This document shows positions 22,123 through 62,041 of a stretch of 64,000 nucleotides of DNA, in pieces. The number at the start of each line of letters is the position of its first letter. Within the stretch, counting starts at the first letter, position 1. Source of the stretch: Candidatus Omnitrophota bacterium (GTDB taxonomy: Bacteria; Omnitrophota; Gorgyraeia; Zapsychrales; Zapsychraceae); contig JAJDCA010000068.1 in the NCBI GenBank assembly GCA_029261055.1, positions 69,275 to 133,274 of the forward strand, given 5' to 3'. The notes beneath the pieces were generated by a model. That model had not been told where the DNA came from, did not search any database, and was given only the letters and a program-made list of their open reading frames with translations. The translations under genes and the position numbers were made by a program.

Positions 22123-22127
22123 TTTTT

Positions 22128-23719: not shown

Positions 23720-23721
23720 AT

Positions 23722-45984: not shown

Positions 45985-46005
45985 AAAAACAATTCCCTCT
46001 AGCCT

Positions 46006-47049
46006 TTAAAATTTAACAACACAACGCCCCGGAACATCTCCCCTCATATTCTCTATCGCATCATTAATATTTTCAAAATCACCCACATAGGAAACTAATT
46101 TTTCAAGCTGCAACTTGCCGTCATTGTGTAATTGAAAATATTCCGGTATTGCCTCATCAGGATACGTCCCTCCGCCTAGCGTTCCAATAATATTTCTCTC
46201 ATGCATGACGGCATGAGCTTCAACTTTCATTTGATGACCTTTCGGCGGAACTCCAACTATGTAACATTCCCCTGGAATAGAAGTCATCTCAGCGCCTTCT
46301 TCAAGAGCTTTAATAACACCAACGCAAACCAAAACCTTGCTGGCACCTTTTCCTCCTGTTATTTCGAGAACACGCTCTAAGGCACTTTCTTTACCCACAT
46401 TAATAGTATTCGTCGCTCCAAACTCTTTTGCCATATCAAGAGCTCTCTCATTAATATCAATGGCAATCAGCTTTTTAGGTTTCTTAGAATAAGCCGCCTG
46501 AATAGCGCATAAACCAACTCCTCCACACCCATAAATGACGACAGTATCATCTGACTTTACTTTTGCCTTGTTTAAGGCAACTCCGACACCGGTTGTGACA
46601 ACACACCCAAATAAAGCAGCCACTATAGGATCACTATCCTTAGGAATAACTGTTAAACGATTTTCAGAAACGACAGCATATTCATTAAAAGTGGTCACCC
46701 ATCCGGAATTAACTCGGGCACCATTTCTATAATACAATGGCGTCTCAGACTGAATGCCGCTTCCCTTTCTCCAATGCAAGACGACCATATCTCCAACTTT
46801 TGCTTTTGTCACCTTTGGCCCGATATCGATCACCTCAGCACTTCCTTCATGTCCCAGCAGATGAGGGATAAACGCATCCGGCGCTTTGCCGTCTATTTCA
46901 TCCGTTTGCTTGCCGCAAATACCGCTGTATTTCATTTTGACCAGGATCTGGCCGTCCATTAACGGCCCCTTAAATTCAATTTCATCAATTTCCAAAGGCT
47001 TACCAATTCCTGTAAGAATTGCCGCTTTAAAAACTACCGGATAATTCAT
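46006..47049 (-). CDS. Zinc-dependent medium-chain alcohol/polyol dehydrogenase (MDR family)
   Basis: SGICGKQTDE...LGHEGSAEV (catalytic Zn ligands) and GCGGVGL Rossmann motif. 347 aa. Confidence 0.85.
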   Translation of the reverse strand: MNYPVVFKAAILTGIGKPLEIDEIEFKGPLMDGQILVKMKYSGICGKQTDEIDGKAPDAFIPHLLGHEGSAEVIDIGPKVTKAKVGDMVVLHWRKGSGIQSETPLYYRNGARVNSGWVTTFNEYAVVSENRLTVIPKDSDPIVAALFGCVVTTGVGVALNKAKVKSDDTVVIYGCGGVGLCAIQAAYSKKPKKLIAIDINERALDMAKEFGATNTINVGKESALERVLEITGGKGASKVLVCVGVIKALEEGAEMTSIPGECYIVGVPPKGHQMKVEAHAVMHERNIIGTLGGGTYPDEAIPEYFQLHNDGKLQLEKLVSYVGDFENINDAIENMRGDVPGRCVVKF

Positions 47050-47081
47050 CTAAATTCTCTCCTTAAGTAAAATTTCTATTC

Positions 47082-47942
47082 TTATGTCAAAACAAGCCCA
47101 AAAATATTCTTTAGTTTATTAGTATTTAAGTTTTGCACTAACGGACTTGCCTTTCCTGCAACAGGTATAATTTTATCTTTCCAATCATCCTTTCCCATCT
47201 CATCGCATAAAGCGCACAGCCTATCGTAGTAATTCATTAACCTAGTCCCAACGTGATACGTACCGTAATTTGTATCATTAATAAAAATCTCAAATAAATT
47301 AAGCAGCTCCTCCAACCGTAAAAAACATCGTTCCACATTATTAAATACCGTTACTTTCTTCCCGCTTCTAAGATCAATAATTGCCTTATCTATGAAAGAG
47401 CCCCGGCCAGTTCTTGTAGAAATACTGAAATGATCTCCCAGGGAATGAACGATAGGAAGTCTCACAATATGAAATTTATCAGTTTTTTCTTTAATCATTT
47501 CTTCGCATTCATATTTAAGATGCGCATAAAGCCATAACGGATTCACACCGGTCTCTTCGTCTGGGTTCGGATCGGAGCCATCAAAAACTTTATCTGTCGA
47601 TGGAAAGATAATATGCGCGTCATCCGATAAATTATTAACAATATTTTGTGTAATCCCTATATTAGCTGCCCTTGCATTTTCAGGATTTTCTTCATTTCGC
47701 CTGGGAGATAAAAAAGCTGCGAAGTGAAATATTATAGTTGGTTTAACCTTATCGAATATCTCTTTGACTTTTTTCCCGTCTCTTAAATCTGCCTCTATAA
47801 AACCTTTACTGCTGTCACCTTCCTTTAAATGAAAAGTGACACCCGTGGAATCATAGTTTTTTAGTTTTTCAAATAAACCTCTTCCTATAAAGCCGCCCGC
47901 ACCAGTAATTAATATTCTTCCTGAATTTATTCTATTTTCCAT
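47082..47942 (-). CDS. NAD-dependent epimerase/dehydratase family protein (extended SDR)
   Basis: RILITGAGGFIGRGLFEKL; YAHLK (YxxxK). 286 aa. Confidence 0.75.
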   Translation of the reverse strand: MENRINSGRILITGAGGFIGRGLFEKLKNYDSTGVTFHLKEGDSSKGFIEADLRDGKKVKEIFDKVKPTIIFHFAAFLSPRRNEENPENARAANIGITQNIVNNLSDDAHIIFPSTDKVFDGSDPNPDEETGVNPLWLYAHLKYECEEMIKEKTDKFHIVRLPIVHSLGDHFSISTRTGRGSFIDKAIIDLRSGKKVTVFNNVERCFLRLEELLNLFEIFINDTNYGTYHVGTRLMNYYDRLCALCDEMGKDDWKDKIIPVAGKASPLVQNLNTNKLKNIFGLVLT

Positions 47943-47946
47943 ACCC

Positions 47947-48981
47947 CTAATCCATTGAAATTATAACGCGGCCCGTTTCACCGCTACGGACTGCATCCAA
48001 CGCTTCATTAATTTCGTCTAATTTAAATTCATGTGTAATCAAATCAGCGAGTTTTAATTTTCCGACATTGTATAGCTGAACATACCGTGGAATTTCAATA
48101 TGAGGGTCAGCACTGCCACCATGAGAACCGGTTAAAACTTTCTTAAAATGTAGCGGCAAAGAATAAATGGAAATATCATCACCTTTACGCGGTACGCCAA
48201 CAAGGATTGTCTTTCCGTCAGGACGGGTCATCTGATAAGCCATTTCGATGACCCGTGCATTTCCCGTTGTGTCGATTACTACATCTGCACCCTTATCTCC
48301 GACAATTTTATAAATTTCCTCTTTCCAGGAATCAGAATCCTTTGAATTAAAACAATGCGTTGCCCCAAACTTCTTTGCCGCCTCTAATTTTAAATCAAAA
48401 ACATCTACGCCGATAATCGGATGCGCAGAAACCAATTCTGCAGCTTGAACTAAATTTAAGCCAACCCCTCCGATTCCAATAATTACCACCGATTGTCCAA
48501 TTTTGACATGTGCATCATTATTGATCACACCCATGGCTGTTGTGACCGAACAACCAAATAAAGGGGCCAGCTTCATATCAAAATCATCAGGGATAGGTGT
48601 TAACCGATTTTCTGAAATAATGGCGTGATCGCTAAATGTCGTTACCCAACCGGCATTGACGGTACGACCATCCCATTGATATTTTGGTGGTTCCGATTGT
48701 AAGCCGTCACTCGGCCGCCAGTGCATAACGACATGGTCTCCCTTTTTCACTGTTTTGACTCCAGGGCCAACATTCAAAACAATTCCTGATCCTTCATGCC
48801 CTAACAAATGCGGCAAGAATTTGTCCGGACCTTTGGTTCCCATGATCTCGTTTATCTGCGCCCCACAAATACCGCTGTAAGAAATTTTCACTAAAACCTG
48901 TCCAAATTCCAAAGTTTCTGGCATTTCCAATTCAGCCAGAACTAATGGTTTATTCAACTCAACTAAAACAGCTGCTTTCAT
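47947..48981 (-). CDS. Zinc-dependent medium-chain alcohol/polyol dehydrogenase (MDR family), paralog of 46006-47049
   Basis: SGICGAQINE...LGHEGSGIV; GIGGVGL Rossmann. 344 aa. Confidence 0.85.
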   Translation of the reverse strand: MKAAVLVELNKPLVLAELEMPETLEFGQVLVKISYSGICGAQINEIMGTKGPDKFLPHLLGHEGSGIVLNVGPGVKTVKKGDHVVMHWRPSDGLQSEPPKYQWDGRTVNAGWVTTFSDHAIISENRLTPIPDDFDMKLAPLFGCSVTTAMGVINNDAHVKIGQSVVIIGIGGVGLNLVQAAELVSAHPIIGVDVFDLKLEAAKKFGATHCFNSKDSDSWKEEIYKIVGDKGADVVIDTTGNARVIEMAYQMTRPDGKTILVGVPRKGDDISIYSLPLHFKKVLTGSHGGSADPHIEIPRYVQLYNVGKLKLADLITHEFKLDEINEALDAVRSGETGRVIISMD

Positions 48982-50207
48982 TATTTTTTTCCTCTCATCT
49001 GATGATTTATAACATCGGCAATTTTCTTGGCAACAATACTATTTCCTAAATCTGCCATATGGGCAAAATCAATATAAACTGTTGTATTTTTATCTTTTGA
49101 TTGAAAAATTTTCTGAAGATCATAAAAATCTTCTTGATTCTCTTTTTCCTCTACAATTTTGTATATTTTCTGGTTAAACTCTAACCTTCCTTCCTCCATA
49201 TCCAAAAATTTAACTTCCTCTTCACTTGCAGATAAATGCGCTCCGGCCATAGGTTGCCAAAAAAAGGCAACCTTAAAGCCATATATAGTAGCTAATTTTC
49301 GAACCATGTCTATACTATTAAAATAATGGTCCGCCGTATCCTTTGGAAATGTCAAAAGCTTTTGCTCAAGACGATCCTTATCTGTCACTGGTCCTTCTTT
49401 GAATTTTTCTTCGTCGTCTAATTCGTTCCACTCATTCCATGCTCGCCATTTTCTTCTTAATTTCCTTGTAAATTCATACATGTTTATTCTTGTATCTATA
49501 TAGCCTCTAATAAATTTCTTTAAATAATCCCTATTACTTTTTATTTCAATGTCATGCTTATATCGTTCTCGTTTTGCCGAAAAATCTGCAGCCTCTCCTA
49601 CTCTACTGTTTACGAAACTGGCATGAATATCATTAACGCCATCAAAAAATATAACATAATCTGGAATTTGATTGTTTTTTATAAGCAGCAATAAGGCTAC
49701 CGCTTCCTGAAAAAAACTATAACCTTGTTGTCCGTAATTAACCACATAATATTGTTCTTCCCCATTACCCTTATTTAAGAATTTCGAAATGAAAGATGGT
49801 ATGGTATAATCATCTCTTGCTCCCATTCCCCACAAAACTGAACCGCCAAAACAATATACTGATTTCGCTTTTGATTTATCGATGTCATTAGGATTCCAGG
49901 TGTTACGAATCCCTTCAGAAGAAACATTAATATACTTCCCCTTAAAAGGCCCAGACTTCCATCCTACATATGACTCATACGTAGGGTGCCCCACGGCTAT
50001 GTGCTCTTTAAAATATTCCTCAGCCCAGTTGGTATCCTTATAAACAGAAAGATCCAGTCTTGGCTCTCGCGTCGCTTTTGGACCTGTATATCGAACATGC
50101 ATTATTATACGATTCGTAACATCAAAAATTATCATAAGAATTATTATACAAAAAACTAAATACCCGATATATTCAAATACCCCTTTTAACTTGGAAAACT
50201 TTTTCAC
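48981..50207 (-). CDS. Membrane-anchored SGNH-like protein (DltD/AlgJ/AlgX-like partner of MBOAT acyltransferase)
   Basis: N-terminal TM anchor (YIGYLVFCIIILMIIF) followed by a ~380-aa extracytoplasmic domain with SGNH-like blocks (VYCFGGSVLWG; FFDGVNDIH). Sits immediately downstream of the MBOAT gene. Confidence 0.5.
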   Translation of the reverse strand: MKKFSKLKGVFEYIGYLVFCIIILMIIFDVTNRIIMHVRYTGPKATREPRLDLSVYKDTNWAEEYFKEHIAVGHPTYESYVGWKSGPFKGKYINVSSEGIRNTWNPNDIDKSKAKSVYCFGGSVLWGMGARDDYTIPSFISKFLNKGNGEEQYYVVNYGQQGYSFFQEAVALLLLIKNNQIPDYVIFFDGVNDIHASFVNSRVGEAADFSAKRERYKHDIEIKSNRDYLKKFIRGYIDTRINMYEFTRKLRRKWRAWNEWNELDDEEKFKEGPVTDKDRLEQKLLTFPKDTADHYFNSIDMVRKLATIYGFKVAFFWQPMAGAHLSASEEEVKFLDMEEGRLEFNQKIYKIVEEKENQEDFYDLQKIFQSKDKNTTVYIDFAHMADLGNSIVAKKIADVINHQMRGKK

Positions 50208-50232
50208 GGTTTTCTCCTCTTTAGAATTAGCC

Positions 50233-51675
50233 TTAAAATTGAAAATAAATAAATGGTGTTTCTAATTTAAAACGTCCGAAAATTAAAAAACAAAATAGTG
50301 TACTATAATAAAAAAAACATTGCAGCCATAACGGTTTCTGAAATAGCCAAACCCTGACAGCTATACGTCTTTGCCCCAGATGGATAAGTTCCATAAAAAT
50401 AATAGCAACAAGTGCTACAATAATTTCATTAATTTCCAGGCCTAAATCATATGTCATGAATTGAAATTTAATATTTGTAAACAAATGTGTCAAAATATAC
50501 ATTGCATCACTTAAAGAGTTAGCCCTAAAAAATATAAGGGTAAAACACCAAAATCCAAATGTTAATCCCATTGCAGTGGTATTAAATATTAACGAAGGCA
50601 CCCTTTCTTCTAACCTCTTTATGGGTTTCTTCATCACAACCTCCAAAGATACAGCTACCCCGTGTAGCAGCCCAAATATGACAAAATTCCATGCAGCCCC
50701 ATGCCACAATCCACAAAGAAAAAAAGTTAATGTTAAAGAACAAAGCAGCCCCCATTGTCCCAAATGCCGTGTTTGTATAAGTAAGGGCGTATAAAGATAA
50801 TCATTAAGCCATGTTGACAAAGAAATGTGCCATCGCCGCCAAAAATCTGACATAGATTTTGCCATATACGGAAAATTAAAATTCTTCATAAGCCGATACC
50901 CCATAACTTCGGCTGCCCCAATAGCGATGTCTGAATAACCAGAAAAATCACAATAAACTTGAAAAGCAAAAAGAATCGTCGCAATGATTAATGGAGCCCC
51001 TGTAAAGTCGTGCGCATTATTATAAACTTGATTGACCAGCACTCCGACACGATCAGCGATAACTATCTTTTTTAAAAATCCCCAAGCCATTAAAAGCAAG
51101 CCGCTTTTAACCCTTTGATAATCGAAGCGTTGCTCCTTATAAAATTGAGGTAAAAGATGTGTGGATCGCTCAATCGGTCCGGCAACTAGCTGTGGGAAAA
51201 ACGTCACATACAAAGCAAATATTCCCAAATGTTTTTCTGGTTTCTGATTTCCTCGATAAACTTCAATGGTATAACTTAAAGTTTGAAACGTATAAAATGA
51301 TATTCCAATAGGCAAAAGAATCTCAAATGCGGGGACATTGTAAAAAATATTAAAATGATTGAAAAGAACTCTTGCCGAGTCATTGAAAAAATTAAAATAT
51401 TTAAATGCAAATAAAATTCCAAGATTAGATACTAAACTTAAAATCAAAAATTTCTTACGTTTTACTTTTTCAATTGTTTTCCCCATTTGAAAGCCGGCAT
51501 AATAGTCGATGATTGTCGAAACCATAATCAACAACACATATTCCGGCTTCCAACACATATAAAAATAATAGCTGGCACCTAATAAAAGAATCCATCGAAA
51601 CCTATGTGGTATTAAAAAATAAGCGAAAACAACACAAGGAAAAAACAAAAGAAATTGTAAAGAATTAAATAACAT
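50233..51675 (-). CDS. MBOAT family membrane-bound O-acyltransferase (AlgI/DltB-like)
   Basis: MLFNSLQFLLFFPCVVFAYFLIP... polytopic protein with the conserved MBOAT His-containing core (RRWHISLSTWLNDYLYTPL; LWHG). 480 aa. Confidence 0.9.
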   Translation of the reverse strand: MLFNSLQFLLFFPCVVFAYFLIPHRFRWILLLGASYYFYMCWKPEYVLLIMVSTIIDYYAGFQMGKTIEKVKRKKFLILSLVSNLGILFAFKYFNFFNDSARVLFNHFNIFYNVPAFEILLPIGISFYTFQTLSYTIEVYRGNQKPEKHLGIFALYVTFFPQLVAGPIERSTHLLPQFYKEQRFDYQRVKSGLLLMAWGFLKKIVIADRVGVLVNQVYNNAHDFTGAPLIIATILFAFQVYCDFSGYSDIAIGAAEVMGYRLMKNFNFPYMAKSMSDFWRRWHISLSTWLNDYLYTPLLIQTRHLGQWGLLCSLTLTFFLCGLWHGAAWNFVIFGLLHGVAVSLEVVMKKPIKRLEERVPSLIFNTTAMGLTFGFWCFTLIFFRANSLSDAMYILTHLFTNIKFQFMTYDLGLEINEIIVALVAIIFMELIHLGQRRIAVRVWLFQKPLWLQCFFYYSTLFCFLIFGRFKLETPFIYFQF

Positions 51676-51696
51676 TTTTAAATTTGATCAGATTAT

Positions 51697-52977
51697 TTAT
51701 CTAATAATAGTAGTAATTTTCTTAGCAAGCTCTTCAGAATAAATACGATTCCCTTTTTCATTAAAATGAGGATCATTAAAAAGATGCAAAAAGTCTTTAT
51801 TTTTCTTCTGAACAACAGGAGTACTATCTAAATAATGAATTTTTAGTTGTGCCGCCCAGTTTCGTAAAGTTTTCGTATTATCCTCGTGCCGTGTTGTAGA
51901 AACTTCGCAGGAATGTTCATGGCCATCATTAAAAGGAAAATTTTCTTTTAGAACATTTGAACAATATTCCTCATCCTGGCCATAAACTACACTCACACTT
52001 GGAATATACGATAATAAAATGATTGATTCAGGACTTACTTCTCTAATATCATTGACAACTTTTGAAAACTCCACAAATGTCTTAGAAAGGTCATCGGAAG
52101 TCATTTCAGTTTCCAATGGCACAGGCGGGAAAAAATGAGCCAGAACCTGACGAAACACTGTTCTGAATATTGACATAAGCTCTCCATATCGTGAAAATTT
52201 TCTCTCCGGCCATGTTAATGTATTTGAGACATCCTTTAAGTGGGCAGGAATGCCGGGCGTATATTCAGCTGTAGCGACTGTAGTAAACCCACCATGAAAA
52301 TTCAAAACCACTATTTTCGGATCATCTTTAAAATAAGTTGAATTTACATAACGCTTAAATTGCAAACCCCAATGAGGAATACCTTGTCCTCCAATACCTA
52401 AGGAATATATTTTAAACGGATCCAAAAACTCTCGAAGATACTCTGTTATAGTTACTGTTGATGATCCTGAAATAAAAGAAGACCCTAAAAGAACAACATC
52501 CATTTTTTCATTATCACTAATGTATCCGGGTAAATTCCTATAACCGAATTCATCATTGATAGAAATATAGCTTGGGTTATTACTACTTGGATTATAAAAC
52601 CAAATATTCCCATCATACATATAAACAGGTTTTTCCTTGTGCGTAAGCTTATATTTAGCTTGCGCATCTTTCGATAGTTTTTTTGTAACTATATTTTTAG
52701 GCAGCCACGGGCTGCCCCAATATAACAAATTATCCACTAATAATCCCAAAGGAAGCAACACTATTAAATTAATAATTATAATTAAACTAATCTGGCGACT
52801 AAATAAACCAACGATTACCACACACACACCAACCCCTATCATTAACCACTGAGCCGGACCAAAAAAATCTTTCGGCCCATCACTAATTCCAAGATCCGCA
52901 GCAAATACTGCAATTAGAACCAATAACACTCCGAATATAATTACACACCCTGATAATAAATATTTCTTATAAACCAC
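51697..52977 (-). CDS. Membrane-anchored SGNH-like protein (second DltD/AlgJ-like partner)
   Basis: Two N-terminal TM helices, then an extracytoplasmic domain with VVLLGSSFISGSS (block I-like) and a late DPHFN (DxxH) motif. 426 aa. Confidence 0.5.
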   Translation of the reverse strand: MVYKKYLLSGCVIIFGVLLVLIAVFAADLGISDGPKDFFGPAQWLMIGVGVCVVIVGLFSRQISLIIIINLIVLLPLGLLVDNLLYWGSPWLPKNIVTKKLSKDAQAKYKLTHKEKPVYMYDGNIWFYNPSSNNPSYISINDEFGYRNLPGYISDNEKMDVVLLGSSFISGSSTVTITEYLREFLDPFKIYSLGIGGQGIPHWGLQFKRYVNSTYFKDDPKIVVLNFHGGFTTVATAEYTPGIPAHLKDVSNTLTWPERKFSRYGELMSIFRTVFRQVLAHFFPPVPLETEMTSDDLSKTFVEFSKVVNDIREVSPESIILLSYIPSVSVVYGQDEEYCSNVLKENFPFNDGHEHSCEVSTTRHEDNTKTLRNWAAQLKIHYLDSTPVVQKKNKDFLHLFNDPHFNEKGNRIYSEELAKKITTIIR

Positions 52978-53002
52978 TACTTGTTCCTTTTTTTAGCAGC
53001 CT

Positions 53003-53722
53003 CTAAATAACATCGGCAGCTGAGTTCATTATTAAATTAATACCATTAATCTGTTGAGATGACTTTATGAGAAAACTGACGGATTCAGCGACTTCATCAG
53101 GAGTTAATAATTTCTTTAGCGGATGGTTACCAATCATGCTTTCAATTACACGCTCATCAGTATCACACGTAAAATGTGTTTTCATAAAAGAAGGTGAAAT
53201 GCAGTTGGCTGTAATATTAAAATGGGCGTTTTCTTTTGCCCAGGATTTACTTAATGAAGCTAGATAGGCCTTATTGGCCACATATTCAGACCAACCTATG
53301 GGGGGCGAATTAAGACAAGCGGAGCTAAGAATGGTTATAATTTTACCAAATTCTTTCTTCCTGAATTGGGTGATAGCTTCTTGAGTAATTTTAATTACAG
53401 GCATAATATTATTTTGAAATTTTTTTTCAAAAACATCAGCTTCCATTTTATGAAAGTGATTCTTCGTCATCCCGGTGGACGCATTATGAATTAAGCCATC
53501 CAGATCAAAATCCTTCATTTGATCAATGAGCGAATTTAGGCTATGGATATCTTCAAAGTTACATTGAATAGATTTTGTGTTAGAATTTTCTTTTTCTATT
53601 GTACGAGCCTTTTCTACAGAAGAATTATACGTAAAAAAAATTTTATTGGATTGTTCGCAAGATAATTTTCGTGTAATTTTTTCACCTAATCCCGAGGCCC
53701 CTCCGGTAATTAAAATATTCAT
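53003..53722 (-). CDS. SDR family oxidoreductase
   Basis: MNILITGGASGLGEKIT motif; YVANKAY (YxxxK). 239 aa. Confidence 0.8.
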   Translation of the reverse strand: MNILITGGASGLGEKITRKLSCEQSNKIFFTYNSSVEKARTIEKENSNTKSIQCNFEDIHSLNSLIDQMKDFDLDGLIHNASTGMTKNHFHKMEADVFEKKFQNNIMPVIKITQEAITQFRKKEFGKIITILSSACLNSPPIGWSEYVANKAYLASLSKSWAKENAHFNITANCISPSFMKTHFTCDTDERVIESMIGNHPLKKLLTPDEVAESVSFLIKSSQQINGINLIMNSAADVI

Positions 53723-53789
53723 TAGATGACTCCTATCTGGATATTTCCGTCTGCCATTTTCTGATTAACTTCATATTGATCCCCCTTAT

Positions 53790-54035
53790 TCATTCGTTGC
53801 TCTGGATCCTTTTTTTAATAGCGACACACATCTCTCCCACATTTCTAAAGCTTTGGATTTCAGCTGATGTAAATCGAATATTAAAATGTTTTTCTATTCC
53901 CACAACGATTTGAATATTATTAAGCGAATCCCAGGCTTTAATGTCATTGACCGTCGTTGAGTCTTCGAGGATAATATTCTTCTCTTCAAGAACATTAATA
54001 AATATAGTGTTGACTTGATTTAATACGTCTGTCAT
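53790..54035 (-). CDS. Acyl carrier protein
   Basis: 81 aa, acidic. IKAWDSLNNIQIV contains the DSL phosphopantetheine-attachment motif at the usual position. Confidence 0.7.
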   Translation of the reverse strand: MTDVLNQVNTIFINVLEEKNIILEDSTTVNDIKAWDSLNNIQIVVGIEKHFNIRFTSAEIQSFRNVGEMCVAIKKRIQSNE

Positions 54036-54049
54036 AAAATAGTCCCTCC

Positions 54050-54979
54050 TTAAGTATGTTTAATTTTTAAAAATGCTCCATAAAGTTCAGTTATTTTGAG
54101 TCTTTCGGCCTTTTCTTTTGGAACATCTTCTGCATAAAAGTTTATGAACTTAACTACTTCTAATCCTGCCTGATCAATCATATTTTCAATTTCTTGTATA
54201 TTATGAAATAAATAAATGTGGTCTATCGTTGGAGCATTCGTGGGGGTTGTCATGAATATATGCCCATCATCCGATAACAACTCTTTTGCTTTAGAAAGTA
54301 ATGCTGCAGGATCCTCAAGATGTTCCAGTATTTCACCCATGGTAATAAAATCATAGGTCTGATCAAGTGGAAACGTTAAAACATCTTGTACAATGTATCG
54401 AATTTTAGGCTTATTAATAAAACTCTTGGAAATTTCCACAGCTGTGGGACTAATATCAACTAAATCAAAACAGACATCATTTTCGAGAATATTAATGGCC
54501 TCTGCAATATATAAACCATGTCCTCCACCTATTTCAAGATAATTTTTAGTATTCTTATTGAATTTTGAAAAAGAATCTATAAAAAACGAAAGCATTTTGT
54601 AATGATGGCTCCATAAAAATTGAGAAAGAAGTAAACCATGCATGTAATACTCCATCACATTAGGATTGTTGTAAACTCGTTGATTAACTTCATCAAATGA
54701 TTTGCTCGAATATTCGCCTGTTCGTACAAATTGTATCTGTTCATAGTTTATATCTGCTATCATTTTGAGATAACATTCCATTCCATAATGGATGTCATTA
54801 CCTTGCTGTTTTAACAATTGAATGTATTTATTAAAGAACTTATTGGCCCTTTCCGTGTCTTGATTAGTAAAAGATTGTATATTCTTGCGAATTTTTTTTG
54901 CATGTAAGGGGTCTTTTGATTCAAGAATAGAAACAATTTGTTGAAGATAATTTTGCACTAATTCTCCTTTATATAACAA
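54050..54979 (-). CDS. Class I SAM-dependent methyltransferase
   Basis: YLEIGGGHGLYIAE (motif I), DLVDIS (post I), FITMGEILEH (motif II/III). 309 aa. Confidence 0.65.
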   Translation of the reverse strand: MLYKGELVQNYLQQIVSILESKDPLHAKKIRKNIQSFTNQDTERANKFFNKYIQLLKQQGNDIHYGMECYLKMIADINYEQIQFVRTGEYSSKSFDEVNQRVYNNPNVMEYYMHGLLLSQFLWSHHYKMLSFFIDSFSKFNKNTKNYLEIGGGHGLYIAEAINILENDVCFDLVDISPTAVEISKSFINKPKIRYIVQDVLTFPLDQTYDFITMGEILEHLEDPAALLSKAKELLSDDGHIFMTTPTNAPTIDHIYLFHNIQEIENMIDQAGLEVVKFINFYAEDVPKEKAERLKITELYGAFLKIKHT

Positions 54980-56673
54980 TTACGAGGCTTAAATTCTTTA
55001 ACGTCTAAATACCAAAAATCATCATTTTTTTTAAAACCAAGGTCTTGAAAAAGAGGCTGCACTAAATTATTTTTAGCAGTAGCGATGCATTCTCCGACGA
55101 TTCGTTGAATATTATATTCTTTCGAAACGGCCATTATTTTATTTAAAACAAAATATTCAACTGTCCTTTTTATCACCCTGCAGCTCATAATCCATGTGTC
55201 AATGAAGAAAGTATTATCTCTTTTTTCTAATATGATAATGCTAATTAATCCATAATCTCCAAATTTATCCTGTAGATTAAAAACAAGGGTCATAAAATTA
55301 TCGGATTCAGATATCCTTTTGATGTCTTGTTCCGTATATCGAATCGTTCTTAAATTAAATTGATTAGATCTTTGAGTTAATTGAGCCACTCTGGGAATAT
55401 TAAATTCATTAAATTCACATACTGAAGAAATCATTCTTAAATTTAAAAGATATTCATCAATATTCGTAAATGAAACTTCTTCAACTTTTCGTTTTTCCTC
55501 CTGTTGATACTGTTGAGTACGATTTTTATCACTTTGTGAATAAGAGGATGTTTCAAACATGTTTAAAGAACTAAGGCACTCTACATATTCAGCAGGATCT
55601 TCGGGTAATTCAGGCACCATTAGTTCTGGAATATGTTTTTTAACGAGATCGCGCTCAAATGGATTGTCATCAATAAAGACCATCGAATCGAACCCTATAT
55701 TTAACACACTCTGAATATGTTTAATATTGTCAATTTTATTGTTCCAATTGGCCACAAAGATTGCAATATCGTCTAGGCGAAGTATCATCTCAGGATGTTT
55801 TAAAAAAGGTTCTTTGGCAATCTTTTCATCATTCTTGCTACAAATGGCCAAGAGTATTCCCCGCTGTTTTAATTGCTTAACCCACCATTGCAGTTCAGAA
55901 AAAGCTTTACCAATACCTAAATCACCTATTTCGATGTTCGCCAAACCATCATCGCCAATGACTCCCCCCCACAATGTATTATCCAAATCCAGTATCAAAC
56001 ATTTTTTAATCTTACCCATTAAGGATTGAATAATATCAAGCGTGTTTTTTGCTATCAAAGGAAGAAAATCCATGCTAAACACCATATCGGCATTAACATA
56101 GTTTCTTGCATCAAAAATAAACTTATGGCCGTACTGATTTTGTAAAGCGCAGACATCATTAATAAAAAAATTGTCTAAGTTTCGACACATATTCATTAAT
56201 TCAACATTAAATTTTCTTACTTGAAATAGGAAAGAGGCGGACACCTTATTGGAATAATTTCCGAAAATATTATCATTGGGTTCTAAAAGATTAAAACAGA
56301 TTATTTTGGCGGGAAGTTTTGTATTAATCGCTGCCACGAGTCCGGTGATTTTTTTTATTTCGTCATCGGCAAAATTGGATTTATCCTGAGTATTAAGTTT
56401 ATAAAAAGTATTTTTTAATTTTTGACTAGATTTAAAGATGACAATATATTCTGGTTTAAAAGAATATAATTTTGATGATGTATCTAAAATCTCACTTTCG
56501 ATTTGATCATATTCAGCTTCATAAATTTGACAATTGATTTGAACTTCATATCCATACCCTTTGAGAGCTTGAACGAACAGTTGTGTTGCGGTGTCTCCTA
56601 ATAGAGCAACTTTTACAAGTTTAGATTTTGAAAAATCTTTTCTTAAATTTTTTTTTAAATCTAGTAAATTCAT
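54958..56673 (-). CDS. FkbH-like protein: HAD-IIIC phosphatase-like domain + C-terminal GNAT-like acyltransferase domain (glyceryl-ACP loading enzyme family)
   Basis: CLILDLDNTLWGGVIGDDGLANIEIG...LKQRGILLAICSKNDEKIA is the FkbH/HAD-IIIC core. C-terminal GNAT-like block (LVFNLQDKFGDYGLISIII). 571 aa. Confidence 0.7.
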   Translation of the reverse strand: MNLLDLKKNLRKDFSKSKLVKVALLGDTATQLFVQALKGYGYEVQINCQIYEAEYDQIESEILDTSSKLYSFKPEYIVIFKSSQKLKNTFYKLNTQDKSNFADDEIKKITGLVAAINTKLPAKIICFNLLEPNDNIFGNYSNKVSASFLFQVRKFNVELMNMCRNLDNFFINDVCALQNQYGHKFIFDARNYVNADMVFSMDFLPLIAKNTLDIIQSLMGKIKKCLILDLDNTLWGGVIGDDGLANIEIGDLGIGKAFSELQWWVKQLKQRGILLAICSKNDEKIAKEPFLKHPEMILRLDDIAIFVANWNNKIDNIKHIQSVLNIGFDSMVFIDDNPFERDLVKKHIPELMVPELPEDPAEYVECLSSLNMFETSSYSQSDKNRTQQYQQEEKRKVEEVSFTNIDEYLLNLRMISSVCEFNEFNIPRVAQLTQRSNQFNLRTIRYTEQDIKRISESDNFMTLVFNLQDKFGDYGLISIIILEKRDNTFFIDTWIMSCRVIKRTVEYFVLNKIMAVSKEYNIQRIVGECIATAKNNLVQPLFQDLGFKKNDDFWYLDVKEFKPRNCYIKEN

Positions 56674-56857: not shown

Positions 56858-57520
56858 TTATTCAAAATATATAAATTCATAATCACCGGTATATCCGAAA
56901 TGCTCATAGAGCCAAATCCATTCATCTTTATCAAAGAACGATTCACACGTCAAAGCCCAACACTGCAAATTAAACTGTTCTAATTCGTTTCTATAACTCT
57001 CCAGCATAATATATTTATTTTTGCCGACACGTTCGACTTCTTTGACCGCTGTTTCTAACTCAAAAATGCGTAGGTTATGAAAACAGCCCAATGTGATGAC
57101 CAAATCGAAATAATTATCCTCAAAAGGATATGGGTCTTGGGCCTTTTGAATGCGCAAACAATCACGGACTTCTTGGGGTGCATCGGCAACTCCATGTTTG
57201 GAAATGTCAAATCCCACAATTTCCGCCTTCGGGAGCAGTTTTTTAAATTCACTCATTAAATGCGCCTTACCGCATCCCACATCAAGAATTTTTGCATCCT
57301 CTTTAAGGTCATAAATTTCGATAAATTTCTGGGCAACTACTTTCCAGCGTCCATCATATTTATATCCACCGTATCCATAGCGCCGGTCACCATCCCAATA
57401 ATCAGATTCATATTCTTTAGCTTTGAGCATGCAATGGACTTTTTCATCCACCATGCGGTCAATATAGGCTCTCTTTGTTTGCGTGTGTAAAGGTGTGACG
57501 ATTTCGAGTAACTTACTCAT
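56858..57520 (-). CDS. Class I SAM-dependent methyltransferase
   Basis: ILDVGCGKAHLMSEF (motif I), VGFDIS (post I), DLVITLGCFHNL (motif II/III). 220 aa. Confidence 0.7.
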   Translation of the reverse strand: MSKLLEIVTPLHTQTKRAYIDRMVDEKVHCMLKAKEYESDYWDGDRRYGYGGYKYDGRWKVVAQKFIEIYDLKEDAKILDVGCGKAHLMSEFKKLLPKAEIVGFDISKHGVADAPQEVRDCLRIQKAQDPYPFEDNYFDLVITLGCFHNLRIFELETAVKEVERVGKNKYIMLESYRNELEQFNLQCWALTCESFFDKDEWIWLYEHFGYTGDYEFIYFE

Positions 57521-57542: not shown

Positions 57543-58487
57543 TTATGCCCCTAGTTTAATCTGTGCCCCTCGCGCCTCTTTGATGGACGCAACTAAATTC
57601 TCTTCGGTGATCCCATAATGCTTCAATTGATCATTTTGAGAACCGTATATATCGGGAAAAACATCCGGAATGCCGATCCTCTTAAAATTTTTAGGTGCTT
57701 CAAAATTTGCTTCCGCAACGATCTCAGCAACTGCACTGCCTAAACCCCCAATCGTGGAATGCTCCTCAATAACTACGATTATGGGTATTCGTTCACAATA
57801 GTTCAATATAGTTTCCGTATCTAGCGGTTTGATCGTATGATTATGCAGGATTGTCGTTTCAATCCCTTCCGCACTAAGCAACTCGGCTGCCTTTTGTGCA
57901 ATGCCAAGCGTGATCCCTGTTGTAATGACAACGGCATCTTCACCCTCTCTCGCTACGATCGCCTTGCCTATTTCAAAAGAATTGTCATCAGAAGTCACAA
58001 TAGGGTCATATCCTTTAGCCATTCGGATATAAATCGGTCCAGGATAATCTACAGTTTGGGGCATTAACCGACGCATCTCATCGGCATCGGCTACCGCAAT
58101 AACAGTCATATTCGGAATAGAGCGCATAATTGCGATATCGTCAATTGCCAAATGCGTCGGTCCCAGCGGGGCATACACTAAACCACCTCCATTGGCAATC
58201 AAACGAATATTGGCCTTATGCAGACAGGCGTCGAGAACAACTTGCTCAAAGCAGCGCCGTGAAAGAAATGTTGCGATCGTATTCACATAAACAATCTTGC
58301 CTTCTATCGCTAAACCGCATCCTATCCCGACCAAATTTGCCTCACTGACACCTTCCATAAAAAATCGTTCCGGGATATTCTCTTTAAACTCTTTTAAAGT
58401 TTCAAAACTAAGATCTGACCCAATAAAAAAAATGCGTTCATCTTTTTGCGCAAGTTCATACACTGCGTTAAGGCATGTTTTACGCAT
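57543..58487 (-). CDS. Transketolase, C-terminal section (second split-transketolase pair)
   Basis: RLIANGGGLVYAPLGPTHLAIDDIAIMRSIPNMTVIAVADADE; paralog of 42373-43338. Its start overlaps the stop of the N-terminal subunit gene by 1 nt. Confidence 0.9.
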   Translation of the reverse strand: MRKTCLNAVYELAQKDERIFFIGSDLSFETLKEFKENIPERFFMEGVSEANLVGIGCGLAIEGKIVYVNTIATFLSRRCFEQVVLDACLHKANIRLIANGGGLVYAPLGPTHLAIDDIAIMRSIPNMTVIAVADADEMRRLMPQTVDYPGPIYIRMAKGYDPIVTSDDNSFEIGKAIVAREGEDAVVITTGITLGIAQKAAELLSAEGIETTILHNHTIKPLDTETILNYCERIPIIVVIEEHSTIGGLGSAVAEIVAEANFEAPKNFKRIGIPDVFPDIYGSQNDQLKHYGITEENLVASIKEARGAQIKLGA

Positions 58488-59323
58488 TAAGCAATCTCCA
58501 ATTCTTTCAAAAGTCCTGAAATATCTTCATCTGTTAGATTGCTGACGTGATGCCATTGTAAATTGTTTTCAGCATAACTAATCCCTTTTCCCTTCACTGT
58601 ATGACAAATAATCGCATTAGGCTTATCAGATTCAAAGGGAAGTTCTAATAATGTTGATTTTAATGCTTTAACATCATGACCATCGACTTCTCGCGTTGCA
58701 AATCCAAACGCCTTCCATTTATCGGCAAAAGGCTCAAGATCTAAAACTTCGTGAGTAGAAGCATACGACTGATGCTTATTGTAATCAATCATAACCGTAA
58801 GGTTCTTTAACTTATGTTTTCCGGCGCATAATGCAGCTTCCCAAACTGAGCCTTCATTACATTCTCCATCACCGACAATAACAATCGTTCGATAATCAGC
58901 TTTTTCATAACGAGCATTTAAAGCCATTCCAATACCCAAAGATAAACCGTGCCCTAAACTCCCCGTCGAAACTTCAATACCGGCAACCTTATGTTCCGGA
59001 TGACCGCCTAAAATGCCGTCAACTTTACAAAACTTCCATAATTCTGATTCGGGTATAAATCCCTTTTCCGCAAGCATCACATAAAGAGCAATACAGCCAT
59101 GCCCTTTACTTAAAATACATCGATCACGATGAAACCATTCAGGATTTTTTGAATCAAACGTAAGAATATCGTCGTAAAGAACGCGTAATATTTCAATAAC
59201 CGAAAGTGACGCCCCAATATGCCCTCTTCCTCCGGCCTCCAATGTTTTAACAATCATTTTCCTTAAATCTTTTGATCTTTGATCTAATCCCACGTTAATC
59301 TCTCCATTACAATAATGTGTCAT
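58487..59323 (-). CDS. Transketolase, N-terminal TPP-binding section (second pair)
   Basis: GHIGASLSVIEILRVLY...VGDGECNEGSVWEAALCAGKHKLKNLTVMIDYNKHQ; paralog of 43338-44180. Confidence 0.9.
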   Translation of the reverse strand: MTHYCNGEINVGLDQRSKDLRKMIVKTLEAGGRGHIGASLSVIEILRVLYDDILTFDSKNPEWFHRDRCILSKGHGCIALYVMLAEKGFIPESELWKFCKVDGILGGHPEHKVAGIEVSTGSLGHGLSLGIGMALNARYEKADYRTIVIVGDGECNEGSVWEAALCAGKHKLKNLTVMIDYNKHQSYASTHEVLDLEPFADKWKAFGFATREVDGHDVKALKSTLLELPFESDKPNAIICHTVKGKGISYAENNLQWHHVSNLTDEDISGLLKELEIA

Positions 59324-60422
59324 AAGGAAACTTGCTGTATGTATCTTTCATCGTCACAAGCATATTTTTGGCTTTTAAAAGCTGCTTTTTAAGAATGTTG
59401 TTTTTGCTTAAAGTTTCTATTTGCGCAAAATGACGCCGTTGAAAATCCCCTGGTATAAATTCGTTCAAAAAAATAAGACACCATTTCAGGCCAAAGAAAG
59501 GATAGGTAACTTTGATCCTATCCTTTAATCGTTCACATTCCTTAAATAATTTAAGTCCGCTTGTTACAAACTGTTGCTTAAGATTTCGATCAAGCATCAT
59601 CGCTGGATGAAGTAAAAAATCTGAAATAGTTTTAGCTGGATCATCCCATCCAAAATGTTCAAAATCCAAGAAGACAATACGCCCGCTCTTATCTCTGAGA
59701 GCATTATGAAAACCAAAATCCGATGGGCTCAATATCTTCTCTCTCTCACTTATACTTTCATCAAATGATATCCTGGAATCTGAAAGCCTCTTCTTTGCCC
59801 ACTGTATTAATATTTCCCAAAATGGAATGAACTCGCAGTCTAAATAATTCCTAAGGACTTCGTATTCTTCTCCAGGCTCCTTAACTTCCTTAAGCCGGTT
59901 TACCCTCGCTTGAATATTATCATTAATTTCCTGGACTGAAAAAAAAGCTTCCGAAGCTACACGCGGAAAATCTGCATCGACACCCCTTAACCTTTTCAAG
60001 TCTGCCAGAAACTCAAGTGCGCAGACGATATCTTGACTTTTAATTTCTTCAGGAGAAATTTTTTTTCCTTCAATAAATGTATAAATAGCACAATTTCCAT
60101 CTTTATCCATAGTGATCGGCTGTGGAATAGATCTGAGGCCGTTATTCCAAAGAAAACTCAAGCTTGAAAACTCAACCGTAAGCCGGTCTCTTGTATTAGC
60201 GGCATCACAGTAATAAAATTTTAAGACATATTTTACATTATCAACTGATTTAATTTGATAAACACGACTATTAAGCCCTCCTCCAATTCTTTTGGAATCA
60301 GTTATTGGCATTGAAAGCAGCCGACAAGCGATACTTTTGACATCAGCATCCTCGAGGCTTTTTTTATTTTGCAAAGAAATAGCCATAAATATCTTTCCAT
60401 TCCCTGAAGGCTTTGACATCAT
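59307..60422 (-). CDS. APH/choline-kinase-like small-molecule kinase (paralog of 44152-45189)
   Basis: LSPSDFGFHNALRDKSGRIVFLDFEHFGWDDP catalytic region aligns with the first kinase; 371 aa. Confidence 0.7.
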   Translation of the reverse strand: MMSKPSGNGKIFMAISLQNKKSLEDADVKSIACRLLSMPITDSKRIGGGLNSRVYQIKSVDNVKYVLKFYYCDAANTRDRLTVEFSSLSFLWNNGLRSIPQPITMDKDGNCAIYTFIEGKKISPEEIKSQDIVCALEFLADLKRLRGVDADFPRVASEAFFSVQEINDNIQARVNRLKEVKEPGEEYEVLRNYLDCEFIPFWEILIQWAKKRLSDSRISFDESISEREKILSPSDFGFHNALRDKSGRIVFLDFEHFGWDDPAKTISDFLLHPAMMLDRNLKQQFVTSGLKLFKECERLKDRIKVTYPFFGLKWCLIFLNEFIPGDFQRRHFAQIETLSKNNILKKQLLKAKNMLVTMKDTYSKFPYDTLL

Positions 60423-61015: not shown

Positions 61016-62041
61016 TTAAGATATGTTGCATTGGGTTTCCGTCTTTAATGTTTTTATATTAAAGTATTTAGGATTATTCATAGAATCCTCAAACTTATTA
61101 TTCCGAAACGCCTTAATCAGATCACGTACAGCATCTTCCAACGTGTGCGTCGGAACAAAATTTAATTCTTTTTTAATTTTCTCCGAGGATATTCGATAAG
61201 AACGAATATCATCAGACGGCGTTGTCTCAATCGTAGGCTCGTCACGATCAGGGATTTCTTGTTTAACCACATCGTGTACGATTTGGGCAATGTCAGCAAT
61301 GCTCCGGTTTTGATAGCCGGCATTGTAAATTTTTCCGGCAATTTTTTCTTTGGGTAACTCAAGAAGCATAACGTAAAGATCTGTAATATCTTCAATATGA
61401 ATATTTGGACGCTCTTGTTTACCGCCGAAAACCTTTATATGATTATTGTTATACGCATGGTTTGTTAAAATATTGACCGACAGATCAAATCTTTGCCGAG
61501 GCGAATACCCACAGACAGTTGCCGGACGAATCGTTACTGTCGTAAATTCATCCGATTGATATTTGGTAAGGATAGGCTCACACAAACCTTTATATTTATT
61601 ATAATCTGTAATCGGCAGAAGCGGATGATCTTCCGTAACTTGCTCAGCTTCACTAATACCGTACACACTGCAGGTTGAAGCATAAATAAATTTTTTTATA
61701 CCACTTTCCTTGCTGATTTGAACAAGCGGTTCAAAGGCATCATAATTGACTTTCTTGCTAAGCTCGGGATCAAGTTCAAACGTTGGATCATTAGATATGC
61801 AAGCAAGATGAATGACAGCATCACAACCGTGCAAACTTGATTTTAACAGGTCATGATCACAAATATCCCCCTTAATCTCTTCTAAATCGGTTTTATTTTC
61901 TATTCCATCAAAAACATCTTCCCCATAAGTGTATAAATCTAATACCTTCACATAATATCCTTGGTTCAATAACTTAGGCACTAAAATGGCACCCACATAT
62001 CCAGCTCCACCGGTAACTAAAACTGTTTGTTTTCTATTCAT
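61016..62041 (-). CDS. NAD-dependent epimerase/dehydratase (UDP-glucose-4-epimerase/HldD-like extended SDR)
   Basis: VLVTGGAGYVGAIL Rossmann motif, STCSVYG, YNKYK (YxxxK). 341 aa. Confidence 0.8.
   Translation of the reverse strand: MNRKQTVLVTGGAGYVGAILVPKLLNQGYYVKVLDLYTYGEDVFDGIENKTDLEEIKGDICDHDLLKSSLHGCDAVIHLACISNDPTFELDPELSKKVNYDAFEPLVQISKESGIKKFIYASTCSVYGISEAEQVTEDHPLLPITDYNKYKGLCEPILTKYQSDEFTTVTIRPATVCGYSPRQRFDLSVNILTNHAYNNNHIKVFGGKQERPNIHIEDITDLYVMLLELPKEKIAGKIYNAGYQNRSIADIAQIVHDVVKQEIPDRDEPTIETTPSDDIRSYRISSEKIKKELNFVPTHTLEDAVRDLIKAFRNNKFEDSMNNPKYFNIKTLKTETQCNIS

Follow-up and report, generated by a model that had tools for sequence, protein, structure and literature searches.

A conserved cassette coupling a split transketolase with a replaced substrate pocket to heptose-like activation genes in a glycan locus of an Omnitrophota bacterium, and its possible role in sugar tailoring

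The branching of sugars by thiamine diphosphate (ThDP)-dependent enzymes is known from several glycan pathways. For example, the branching of nucleoside diphosphate (NDP)-4-keto sugars followed by reduction of the side chain has been established in O-antigens, where it is carried out by YerE/YerF and ErwE/ErwF (PMC9306805). Another example is given by the alpha/beta pairs of pyruvate dehydrogenase E1 (PDH-E1) type, for which a role in attaching two-carbon branches to the keto sugars of avilamycin and paulomycin has been proposed (PMC4753412). In the activation of heptoses, three nucleotidyltransferase architectures have been summarised by Tang and co-workers, and an order of nucleotidyltransferase followed by kinase is not among them (PMC11573728). 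The present analysis deals with a gene cassette in which heptose-like activation genes of exactly this order are joined to a split (two-subunit) transketolase, an orphan kinase and an orphan phosphatase. It lies in a stretch of 64,000 nucleotides from a Candidatus Omnitrophota bacterium (contig JAJDCA010000068.1, positions 69,275 to 133,274), referred to as the window, which is one very long glycan-biosynthesis locus on the minus strand with a GC content of about 0.37. The transketolase probably remodels a surface-glycan sugar instead of supplying its precursor, because it has lost the residues that hold sugar phosphates; a probability of roughly 0.4 is given to the more specific reading, drawn by analogy, that the cassette would make a heptose-type NDP-sugar and then tailor it by ThDP-dependent two-carbon transfer.

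The cassette is conserved and widespread. A scan seeded with the kinase and restricted to one genome per species gave 559 loci, of which 80 were examined by searching with the window proteins and by clustering all open reading frames (ORFs); individual loci, of this and other scans, are designated by L numbers. The recurrent order is a SIS-domain gene, a short-chain dehydrogenase/reductase of 332 residues (SDR-332), a nucleotidyltransferase–PfkB fusion (NT-PfkB), a further SDR of 341 residues (SDR-341), a HAD phosphatase, the kinase, the N- and C-subunits of the transketolase (TK-N and TK-C), a methyltransferase (MT-220) and a zinc-dependent alcohol dehydrogenase (Zn-ADH). The kinase and TK-N occur in all 80 loci and TK-C in 78; the HAD gene is found in 68 and is fused to the kinase in about 10 more, and lower counts are seen for MT-220 (66, always in the same position), NT-PfkB (61), SDR-341 (58), SIS (39-40) and Zn-ADH (35, at about +3.4 kb). 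Many of these absences are explained by contig ends. In fact, the layout on both sides of the transketolase is conserved, with SDR, NT-PfkB and SIS upstream and MT-220 together with Zn-ADH or an SDR downstream, and so a nucleotide-sugar cluster stands next to a candidate side-chain reductase, as in the known branching systems. Zn-ADH adjoins MT-220 in L084, L086 and L088, and in the window it has been displaced by an inserted acylation block. Other recurrent neighbours are a DegT aminotransferase, a TylC3-type sugar C-methyltransferase, RmlD-type reductases, radical-SAM enzymes and PhyH-type enzymes, the first three being families typical of NDP-keto-sugar tailoring. The 80 loci span Omnitrophota, Planctomycetes, cyanobacteria (Microcoleus/Kamptonema), Bryobacterales and other Acidobacteria, Verrucomicrobia, Nitrospirae, Desulfobacterota, Rhodospirillales (Alphaproteobacteria), and Woese- and Nanoarchaeota. 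In the DPANN archaea (Woesearchaeota and Nanoarchaeia; L020, L026, L041, L050), the cassette carries HAD–kinase and kinase–transketolase fusions and its kinase is about 44 % identical to that of the window, and therefore an inter-domain transfer of a glycan pathway is implied. A full-text literature search found no paper describing the cassette; matches concerning Brachyspira and Histophilus were set aside, as they deal with housekeeping genes.

The transketolase combines an intact cofactor site with a replaced substrate site. In the window, the kinase and both subunits form a module of three minus-strand genes at 57543-60422 (copy 2), which is paralogous to a set at 42373-45189 (copy 1), as had been proposed in an earlier sequence-only reading. 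In TK-N of copy 2, the motifs GH, SKGH, GHP, GDGE..EG, DYN and WH are present, and the features expected of a canonical transketolase, namely the ThDP and Mg2+ motifs and the catalytic His of the pyrophosphate (PP) domain, are kept in 77 of 77 orthologues; three additional His residues of the pocket (positions 125, 241 and 259) are invariant and specific to this family. TK-C was aligned with the split transketolase of Carboxydothermus hydrogenoformans and with human TKT over 74 orthologues (residues in yeast numbering). In every one of them, an invariant 'GGG(L)VYAPLGPTH' takes the place of 'THAGLTVGEDG(A/P)(S/T)H', the phosphate-binding His469 is changed to Gly, and the acceptor-binding Asp477, which in transketolases hydrogen-bonds the C2 hydroxyl of the acceptor, is changed to Leu. 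Likewise, Ser386 is replaced by Gly in 67 of the 74 (Glu29 in window copy 2) and Arg528 by Lys in 73, and Arg359 is the only one retained of the five canonical sugar-phosphate and acceptor ligands checked. A housekeeping transketolase was discarded as a candidate in view of these replacements, and a role as a simple supplier of sedoheptulose-7-phosphate appears very unlikely, because the phosphate and acceptor ligands are replaced in all orthologues.

The closest solved structures are those of the C. hydrogenoformans enzyme (6yaj for TK-C, 208 bits; 6yak for TK-N, 231 bits), which shares with the cassette enzyme the two-subunit form and the ThDP, metal and catalytic His residues; the cassette enzyme differs in the replacement of His469, Asp477, Ser386 and Arg528, in the new invariant pocket His and in its glycan context, as opposed to central metabolism. 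On TK-N, E1_dh (32.8 bits) and TPP_enzyme_C (16.7 bits) score far below Transketolase_N (154 bits; Pfam), and the window transketolase has neither the acetolactate synthase (ALS)-like homology of YerE nor the PDH-E1 alpha/beta homology of AviB1/AviB2. With YerE/YerF, ErwE/ErwF, AviB1/AviB2 and Pau11/Pau12 plus Pau7, the cassette has in common a ThDP enzyme whose gene lies in a nucleotide-sugar cluster, with an NAD(P)H reductase after it, and with AviB1/AviB2 also the two-component (alpha/beta) form. Unlike them, its enzyme belongs to the transketolase family proper, and therefore the expected donor is a ketose (a glycolaldehyde unit) and not pyruvate; furthermore, its kinase and HAD phosphatase are obligatory, and its backbone would be of heptose type and not a 3,6-dideoxyhexose. 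By analogy, the transketolase half thus appears to work most like the ThDP sugar-branching systems, in a different ThDP family and with an unprecedented kinase/phosphatase escort.

The activation half resembles the ADP-/NDP-heptose pathway. Upstream of the kinase, the HAD phosphatase, epimerase-family SDR and nucleotidyltransferase/PfkB fusion previously read from the sequence were borne out by Pfam, by motifs and by the AlphaFold2 (AF2) fold. The proposal that the fusion is an HldE/RfaE-like enzyme with swapped domains also agrees with the NCBIfam profiles, which place rfaE domain II (residues 36-178, 103.7 bits) before rfaE domain I (208-508, 135.6 bits); TagD (30.4) and ribokinase (40.7) score much lower. 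The rfaE scores are below the equivalog cut-offs (PRK11316, 184.6 against 521; rfaE_dom_I, 135.6 against 345; rfaE_dom_II, 103.7 against 181.5), and the fusion is not a bifunctional HldE in the strict sense, in which the kinase precedes the adenylyltransferase. The swapped order was checked in 22 aligned orthologues and in the loci annotated with Pfam; the HxGH and GAGD motifs are invariant, and the closest relatives (68 %) come from metagenome-assembled genomes of Omnitrophota and Planctomycetes. Its nearest entries in the PDB are weak matches (45-47 bits) to 3glv, HldC (5x9q) and HldA (4e84), and the nucleotidyltransferase domain also resembles ethanolamine- and choline-phosphate cytidylyltransferases. 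In SDR-341, the motif 'ASTCSVYG' and YxxxK are present; 4,6-dehydratase activity was rejected for the cassette SDRs, as neither of the two conserved ones has the TDE motif.

It had also been stated that no SIS-type GmhA isomerase is visible, which is true of the window, where a six-frame phmmer scan found neither a SIS gene nor a GmhB-type gene (no GmhB homologue at E<=1), and is misleading for the locus. When the window was extended through the Logan contig SRR15505515_6875 (L001, in which position 6420 corresponds to window position 64000), a gmhA-like SIS_2 gene was found shortly after the end of the window. It belongs to the same contig, and so a SIS-type isomerase as in an NDP-heptose pathway is encoded with the unit. 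This protein scores 96 bits against gmhA (cut-off 209) and matches eleven solved phosphoheptose isomerases, with 64-77 bits for GmhA structures; the phosphate loop and both His residues, including the catalytic one, are conserved, and Glu65 of GmhA is changed to Asp. The likeness to the heptose pathway is therefore considerable in gene content, with SIS corresponding to GmhA, PfkB and the nucleotidyltransferase to HldE domains I and II, and the SDRs being related to HldD/GalE, all of them adjacent. The differences are the nucleotidyltransferase-then-kinase order, the scores below the equivalog cut-offs, the Asp at Glu65, the lack of a GmhB orthologue in the locus and the junction of the unit to six more conserved genes. 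Consequently, the view that this is not the textbook heptose pathway stands in so far as a one-to-one match with canonical enzymes fails on scores, domain order and GmhB, and has to be amended in so far as a gmhA homologue does lie just outside the window. Judged from the sequences, the activation half would work like the NDP-heptose pathway and fails the NCBI cut-offs for membership.

The two enzymes that escort the transketolase are, by their residues, predicted to be catalytically complete. The kinase belongs to the APH/choline-kinase-like superfamily, with a PF01636 match above the gathering score and the Lys/Glu/Asp-x4-Asn/Asp constellation (K68, E84, D235, N240 and D253) present and invariant. 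A profile search of solved structures found no relative detectable by sequence, and the AF2 model (mean predicted local distance difference test, pLDDT, 87.6) comes closest in fold to choline kinases, LicA and macrolide/aminoglycoside phosphotransferases, with template-modelling (TM) scores of 0.5-0.6. Its relatives amount to more than 5,000 90 %-clusters, with 2,771 50 %-cluster representatives at E<=1e-30. The HAD protein (HADlike204) has no Pfam match and only a weak HAD-IB match in NCBIfam, and its family of 2,028 members consists entirely of unnamed or 'hypothetical' proteins, none with a Pfam domain. It is assigned to the HAD phosphatases by motifs I-IV, which are invariant or nearly so (DxDxT with D8, D10 and T12; S94; K144; D158/D159), and by the capped Rossmannoid fold of its AF2 model (pLDDT 94.5), for which Foldseek matches HAD hydrolases at E 1e-6 to 1e-4; the fold neighbours are generic C1-capped HAD phosphatases, NANP-type ones among them. 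An identity with GmhB was discarded, since 16 of the 80 loci carry a GmhB-like HAD and always alongside HADlike204. For both proteins, the modelled folds point to broad superfamilies only, from which no substrate would be derivable. HAD–kinase fusions (510-594 aa) and kinase–TK-N fusions (P0081 among them) recur. A different arrangement is seen in L051 (9381-11810), where the HAD–kinase pair is followed by a PhyH-type dioxygenase, with no transketolase, inside a pseB/DegT/CMP-synthetase cluster and with no NT-PfkB within 10 kb; the kinase/phosphatase pair is therefore not tied exclusively to the transketolase.

The relationship between the two halves is asymmetric. A metagenome scan seeded with the swapped NT-PfkB gave 573 relatives confirmed by tblastn. 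Among the loci with at least 7 kb of downstream sequence, about 18 have the transketolase module and about 16 do not; the latter keep SDR-332, and most of them also SIS, beside NT-PfkB. In contrast, loci with the transketolase module hardly ever lack a neighbouring NT-PfkB. Because NT-PfkB/SIS is found without transketolase in roughly half of the loci, the heptose-like unit is independent of the transketolase module, which is an add-on and depends on this unit in almost every case. When the NT-PfkB tree is labelled by transketolase presence, segregation is only partial and does not tell a feeder from a tailoring module. The other non-canonical split transketolases found near NT-PfkB units all have His469 changed to Gly, and most of them have Asp477 changed to Leu; for example, the transketolase pairs of L123 and L128 come without kinase or HAD and stand between an SDR, which precedes them, and MT-220, which follows. 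A PDH-E1 alpha/beta-like pair (E1_dh, 226 bits) directly follows the SDR-341 orthologue in L128 (12550-14609), L123 (15380-16435) and L095 (14540-15634). These E1 pairs are separate genes that come in addition to the non-canonical transketolase pair, and two different ThDP systems are therefore present in these three loci. Both the E1 pairs and the kinase-less transketolases in the same position fit sugar tailoring better than the supply of sedoheptulose-7-phosphate, and tailoring is favoured because the ligands are lost, because NT-PfkB/SIS occurs without transketolase and because related loci swap ThDP pairs. Thus, of the self-contained route that the sequence-only reading had drawn, from ketose phosphate to sugar-1-phosphate and NDP-sugar, the link between the module and the heptose-like set holds (NT-PfkB in 61 of 80 loci, in conserved order), and the idea that it is fed by the transketolase does not agree with a C-subunit lacking its ligands in every orthologue or with the transketolase-free NT-PfkB/SIS loci. 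One split transketolase beside a swapped NT-PfkB, in L110 (1146-2955), is the only one that keeps the canonical His/Glu-Asp/Arg substrate residues, and by these residues it would be the one candidate for a true supplier of sedoheptulose-7-phosphate.

The following chemistry, with its substrate, point of attack and sequence of steps, is inferred. By homology, SIS, the PfkB kinase, a phosphatase and the nucleotidyltransferase would convert sedoheptulose-7-phosphate into an NDP-heptose-type sugar, on which one of the SDRs would create a carbonyl. The transketolase, with its ThDP chemistry intact and its acceptor pocket presumably widened and no longer specialised for phosphate, might then take a two-carbon ketol (dihydroxyethyl) unit off a ketose donor and attach it to this carbonyl, in analogy to YerE and AviB1/AviB2. 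Because HAD–kinase and kinase–transketolase fusions exist, the kinase and the HAD phosphatase would bracket this reversible transfer, with either the newly formed ketol or the donor and the leaving aldose as their substrates, so that the product would be trapped and the transfer made directional. Finally, Zn-ADH would reduce the side-chain ketone and MT-220 would cap a hydroxyl. The conserved order, the fusions, the intact TK-N, the invariant replacements in TK-C, the HldE and GmhA likeness, the asymmetric co-occurrence of the two halves, the tailoring-type neighbours, the ThDP pairs of sister loci and the precedents for ThDP-dependent branching in O-antigens and antibiotics are all consistent with this reading, for which about two chances in five seem appropriate.

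Several points weigh against it. The members of the cassette are known from their genes and sequences alone. Transketolases normally attack aldehydes and not ring ketones or NDP-sugars, and we know of no transketolase-family enzyme that acts on a nucleotide sugar. Likewise, to our knowledge the described branching pathways need neither a kinase nor a phosphatase. The source of the carbonyl is not evident, because the conserved SDRs lack the TDE dehydratase motif, and some phosphate binding may remain through the retained Arg359 and the Lys at the position of Arg528. In addition, the HAD–kinase pair of L051 can serve another scaffold, and the asymmetric co-occurrence would be expected equally for an optional feeder.

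Such a feeder is the first of the other explanations to be weighed, in a modified form in which a non-phosphorylated or an atypical aldose is turned by the transketolase into an unusual ketose, which is then phosphorylated by the APH-fold kinase and converted by SIS, PfkB, HAD and the nucleotidyltransferase into an NDP-sugar in the manner of heptoses. The genes adjoin in conserved order, consecutive steps would suit the kinase–transketolase fusion, a free sugar as acceptor would suit the lost phosphate ligands, and HADlike204 could act as GmhB in a window without a GmhB-type phosphatase. It seems unlikely all the same, given that orthologous NT-PfkB/SIS units (42-68 % identity) manage without transketolase in about half of the loci, that 16 loci carry a GmhB-like HAD besides HADlike204, that the kinase is missing from some transketolase variants, and that a single activation would consume two kinases and up to two phosphatases. 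The plainest feeder, in which ordinary paralogues of the pentose-phosphate transketolase merely boost sedoheptulose-7-phosphate for heptose synthesis, has in its favour that the best Pfam and NCBIfam matches are transketolases; since invariant replacements affect four of the five canonical substrate ligands that were checked, the orphan kinase and HAD accompany the genes or are fused to them in all cases, and the scores lie under the equivalog cut-offs, it is regarded as extremely improbable.

A different logic is offered by the mammalian and Bacteroides sialic-acid route, in which N-acetylmannosamine kinase, N-acetylneuraminate-9-phosphate synthase and the phosphatase NANP act in sequence with a C3 donor. 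In the corresponding explanation, a free aldose would be phosphorylated by the kinase at its distal hydroxyl and extended at the reducing end by the transketolase with two carbons from a C2 donor, and the resulting 2-ulose phosphate would be dephosphorylated by HAD. In both cases a C–C bond step stands between a kinase and a HAD phosphatase, and the fusions flank this very step; Asp477 changed to Leu would suit an acceptor that carries something other than a D-hydroxyl at C2, the HAD fold neighbours include NANP-type phosphatases, nonulosonic-acid genes lie near several loci and abut the cassette in the window contig, L086 and L051, and in L051 the HAD–kinase pair is found in a pseB/CMP-synthetase cluster with a dioxygenase in place of the transketolase. 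The condensing enzymes differ (transketolase, C2, versus a NeuB-type synthase using C3 from phosphoenolpyruvate), as do the kinase folds (APH versus ROK/GNE). What makes this explanation quite unlikely is that the conserved set has neither an NDP-sugar hydrolase nor a CMP-type synthetase, that the linked NT-PfkB is left without a role, and that nonulosonic-acid genes adjoin only a minority of loci. Alternatively, the transketolase, kinase, Zn-ADH and methyltransferase might produce a phospho-alcohol or alditol phosphate that is activated by the cytidylyltransferase-like domain and ends as a phosphodiester substituent of the glycan. This would account for choline kinases and LicA as the nearest folds of the kinase and for the resemblance of the nucleotidyltransferase domain to ethanolamine- and choline-phosphate cytidylyltransferases, and TarJ-type Zn-ADH enzymes are known to reduce ketose phosphates. 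Nevertheless, the score of that domain on rfaE domain II is three times its score on TagD, its fusion partner is a heptose-kinase-like PfkB, SIS is found together with NT-PfkB, and HAD would reverse the kinase step, all of which makes a small-molecule branch distinctly improbable.

Returning to the reading of ThDP-dependent tailoring, the window adds a second, more diverged module. Copies 1 and 2 share 32 % identity in the kinase (5e-57), 50 % in TK-N (4e-92) and 45 % in TK-C (2e-89; pairwise BLASTP), far more than chance would give, and the two sets are old paralogues; a recent tandem duplication was excluded by these identities, by separate clades and by their joint occurrence in L088. The kinase of copy 1 forms a small clade of its own, with about 50 proteins at 44 % identity or more, and copy 1 has no HAD of its own. 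In TK-N of copy 1 the His of 'GHP', which in transketolases binds the C1 hydroxyl of the donor, is changed to Cys, and in TK-C the Arg359 equivalent is changed to Phe; because of these two changes, the sequence suggests a donor without a C1 hydroxyl. The two-module layout is kept on contig OBEQ010474116 (L088), with the cassette, RmlD, Zn-ADH, SDR and a copy-1-type kinase and transketolase in the same order. The RmlD-like/Zn-ADH/SDR trio (window 45205-47942) is found ahead of the copy-1-type module in L088, and after the cassette in L084. Since the locus has this second, more diverged kinase–transketolase set with its own reductases, a second C–C bond-forming step is likely. Directly after copy 1 stand two adjacent TIGR04372-family glycosyltransferases, candidate transferases for the cassette product, whose homologues follow the module in L088/L089 and about 10 other loci; in L088, a 400-aa protein without Pfam match occupies the place of the first of them. 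The coordinates of these genes are collected in Table 1.

It is tempting, and at present doubtful, to go one step further and to regard the cassette enzyme as a new transketolase subfamily for the two-carbon extension or C-branching of heptose-type nucleotide sugars, driven by a kinase/phosphatase pair that is sometimes fused; with two successive modules, here and in L088, this might yield a C9 to C11 or doubly branched, methylated surface-glycan sugar. If true, many bacterial lineages and DPANN archaea would share a new and general way of making higher-carbon sugars. The transketolase family would join YerE- and E1-type enzymes as builders of branched or chain-extended sugars, and the trapping of a reversible ketol transfer by a kinase/phosphatase pair would be a new logic. 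Because the glycans of most carriers are uncharacterised and the cassette is very widespread, it points to an undescribed and common sugar. It also gives a function-linked context to three unnamed families, namely the kinase, the HAD protein without a Pfam model and the swapped-order HldE, the latter being of added interest because NDP-heptoses are agonists of innate immunity. In biocatalysis, the positions equivalent to Asp477 and His469 are engineered to alter the acceptor scope of transketolases, and natural enzymes with Leu and Gly at these positions are of relevance there.

Table 1. Genes of the cassette, of the second module and of the adjoining DNA (window positions unless marked L001; AF2, AlphaFold2; empty cells, no entry).
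Feature	Coordinates	Strand	Basis and remarks
pseB	L001 4075-5118		Beyond window, next to SIS; 485 bits (cut-off 407)
SIS_2 gene, gmhA-like, 213 aa	L001 5091-5732		Beyond window (688-1329 bp past position 64000), same contig
SDR-332 (Epim332, 332 aa), 3' part	63693-64000 (ORF 63693-63935); L001 5729-6727	-	Second SDR; runs off window end
NT-PfkB fusion, 528 aa	62060-63646	-	CTP_transf_like, residues 50-154; PfkB, 215-506 (Pfam)
SDR-341 (Epim341), extended SDR, epimerase/oxidoreductase type	61016-62041	-	Pfam Epimerase 127 bits; best NCBIfam galE 112 bits, below cut-off
HADlike204, orphan C1-capped HAD phosphatase, 204 aa	60364-60978	-	HAD motifs, AF2 fold; overlaps kinase start
APH/choline-kinase-fold kinase, copy 2	59307-60422	-	PF01636 36.3 bits (cut-off 23.2)
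Split transketolase N-subunit (ThDP/PP domain), copy 2	58487-59323	-	Pfam Transketolase_N
Split transketolase C-subunit, copy 2	57543-58487	-	Pfam Transket_pyr 96 bits and Transketolase_C 99 bits; pocket motif 'ANGGGLVYAPLGPTH'
MT-220 (MT220), class I SAM methyltransferase	56858-57520	-	Pfam; directly after TK-C
Zn-ADH (ZnADH344)	47947-48981	-	Pfam, NCBIfam
RmlD-like reductase	47082-47942	-	Pfam, NCBIfam; leads into copy 1
Second Zn-ADH	46006-47049	-	Pfam, NCBIfam; leads into copy 1
Classical SDR	45205-45984	-	Pfam, NCBIfam; directly before copy 1
Kinase, copy 1	44152-45189	-	Pfam/ORF calls
TK-N, copy 1	43338-44180	-	Pfam/ORF calls
TK-C, copy 1	42373-43338	-	Pfam/ORF calls
Two TIGR04372-family glycosyltransferases	39557-42386	-	NCBIfam 227 and 221 bits (cut-off 45); no Pfam match

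Other parts of the locus, all on the minus strand where a strand is given, were observed beside the cassette. The acylation block inserted between MT-220 and Zn-ADH (48981-56673) contains FkbH (54958-56673), a methyltransferase, an acyl carrier protein (ACP, 53790-54035), an SDR, an SGNH protein, an MBOAT protein (50233-51675) and another SGNH protein; its GC content is 0.32-0.35 against about 0.39, hardly any related locus has it (FkbH in 2 of 80), and it looks like an ACP-dependent O-acylation of the glycan with a glyceryl-derived group, following a Dlt-like logic. A pseudaminic-acid-type pathway is split over more than 45 kb, with the whole transketolase cassette in between: pseB lies beyond the window end, and NeuB (20339-21370), WbqC, a hexapeptide acyltransferase and DegT enzymes (together 20339-27656), as well as a CTP_transf_3 synthetase (16799-17566), lie far downstream. 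An HpcH/HpaI-type pyruvate aldolase (10748-11548, minus strand) overlaps a second CTP_transf_3 cytidylyltransferase (9963-10799), and the two could form an aldolase route to a 3-deoxy-2-ulosonic acid. The pair could likewise provide hydroxylated 2-keto acids such as serve ErwE-type ThDP enzymes as donors (PMC9306805). Near the opposite end of the window, a sugar-phosphate cyclase resembling dehydroquinate (DHQ) synthase (3581-4678) stands beside a radical SAM/SPASM enzyme (2459-3379), both on the minus strand, and is adjoined by SDRs, a D-2-hydroxyacid dehydrogenase and a GFO-family oxidoreductase; a cyclitol or carbasugar branch within the polysaccharide locus is possible. Another example of gene fusion is a protein of 730 aa (29876-32068, minus strand) with an N-terminal RmlD-type reductase and a C-terminal DegT aminotransferase, located beside an ABC exporter (32080-33873). 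Finally, five large minus-strand ORFs without Pfam match (365-727 aa; 7607-9184, 13561-15609, 17563-19398, 23722-24819 and 27691-29874) are candidates for novel glycosyltransferases or polymerases.

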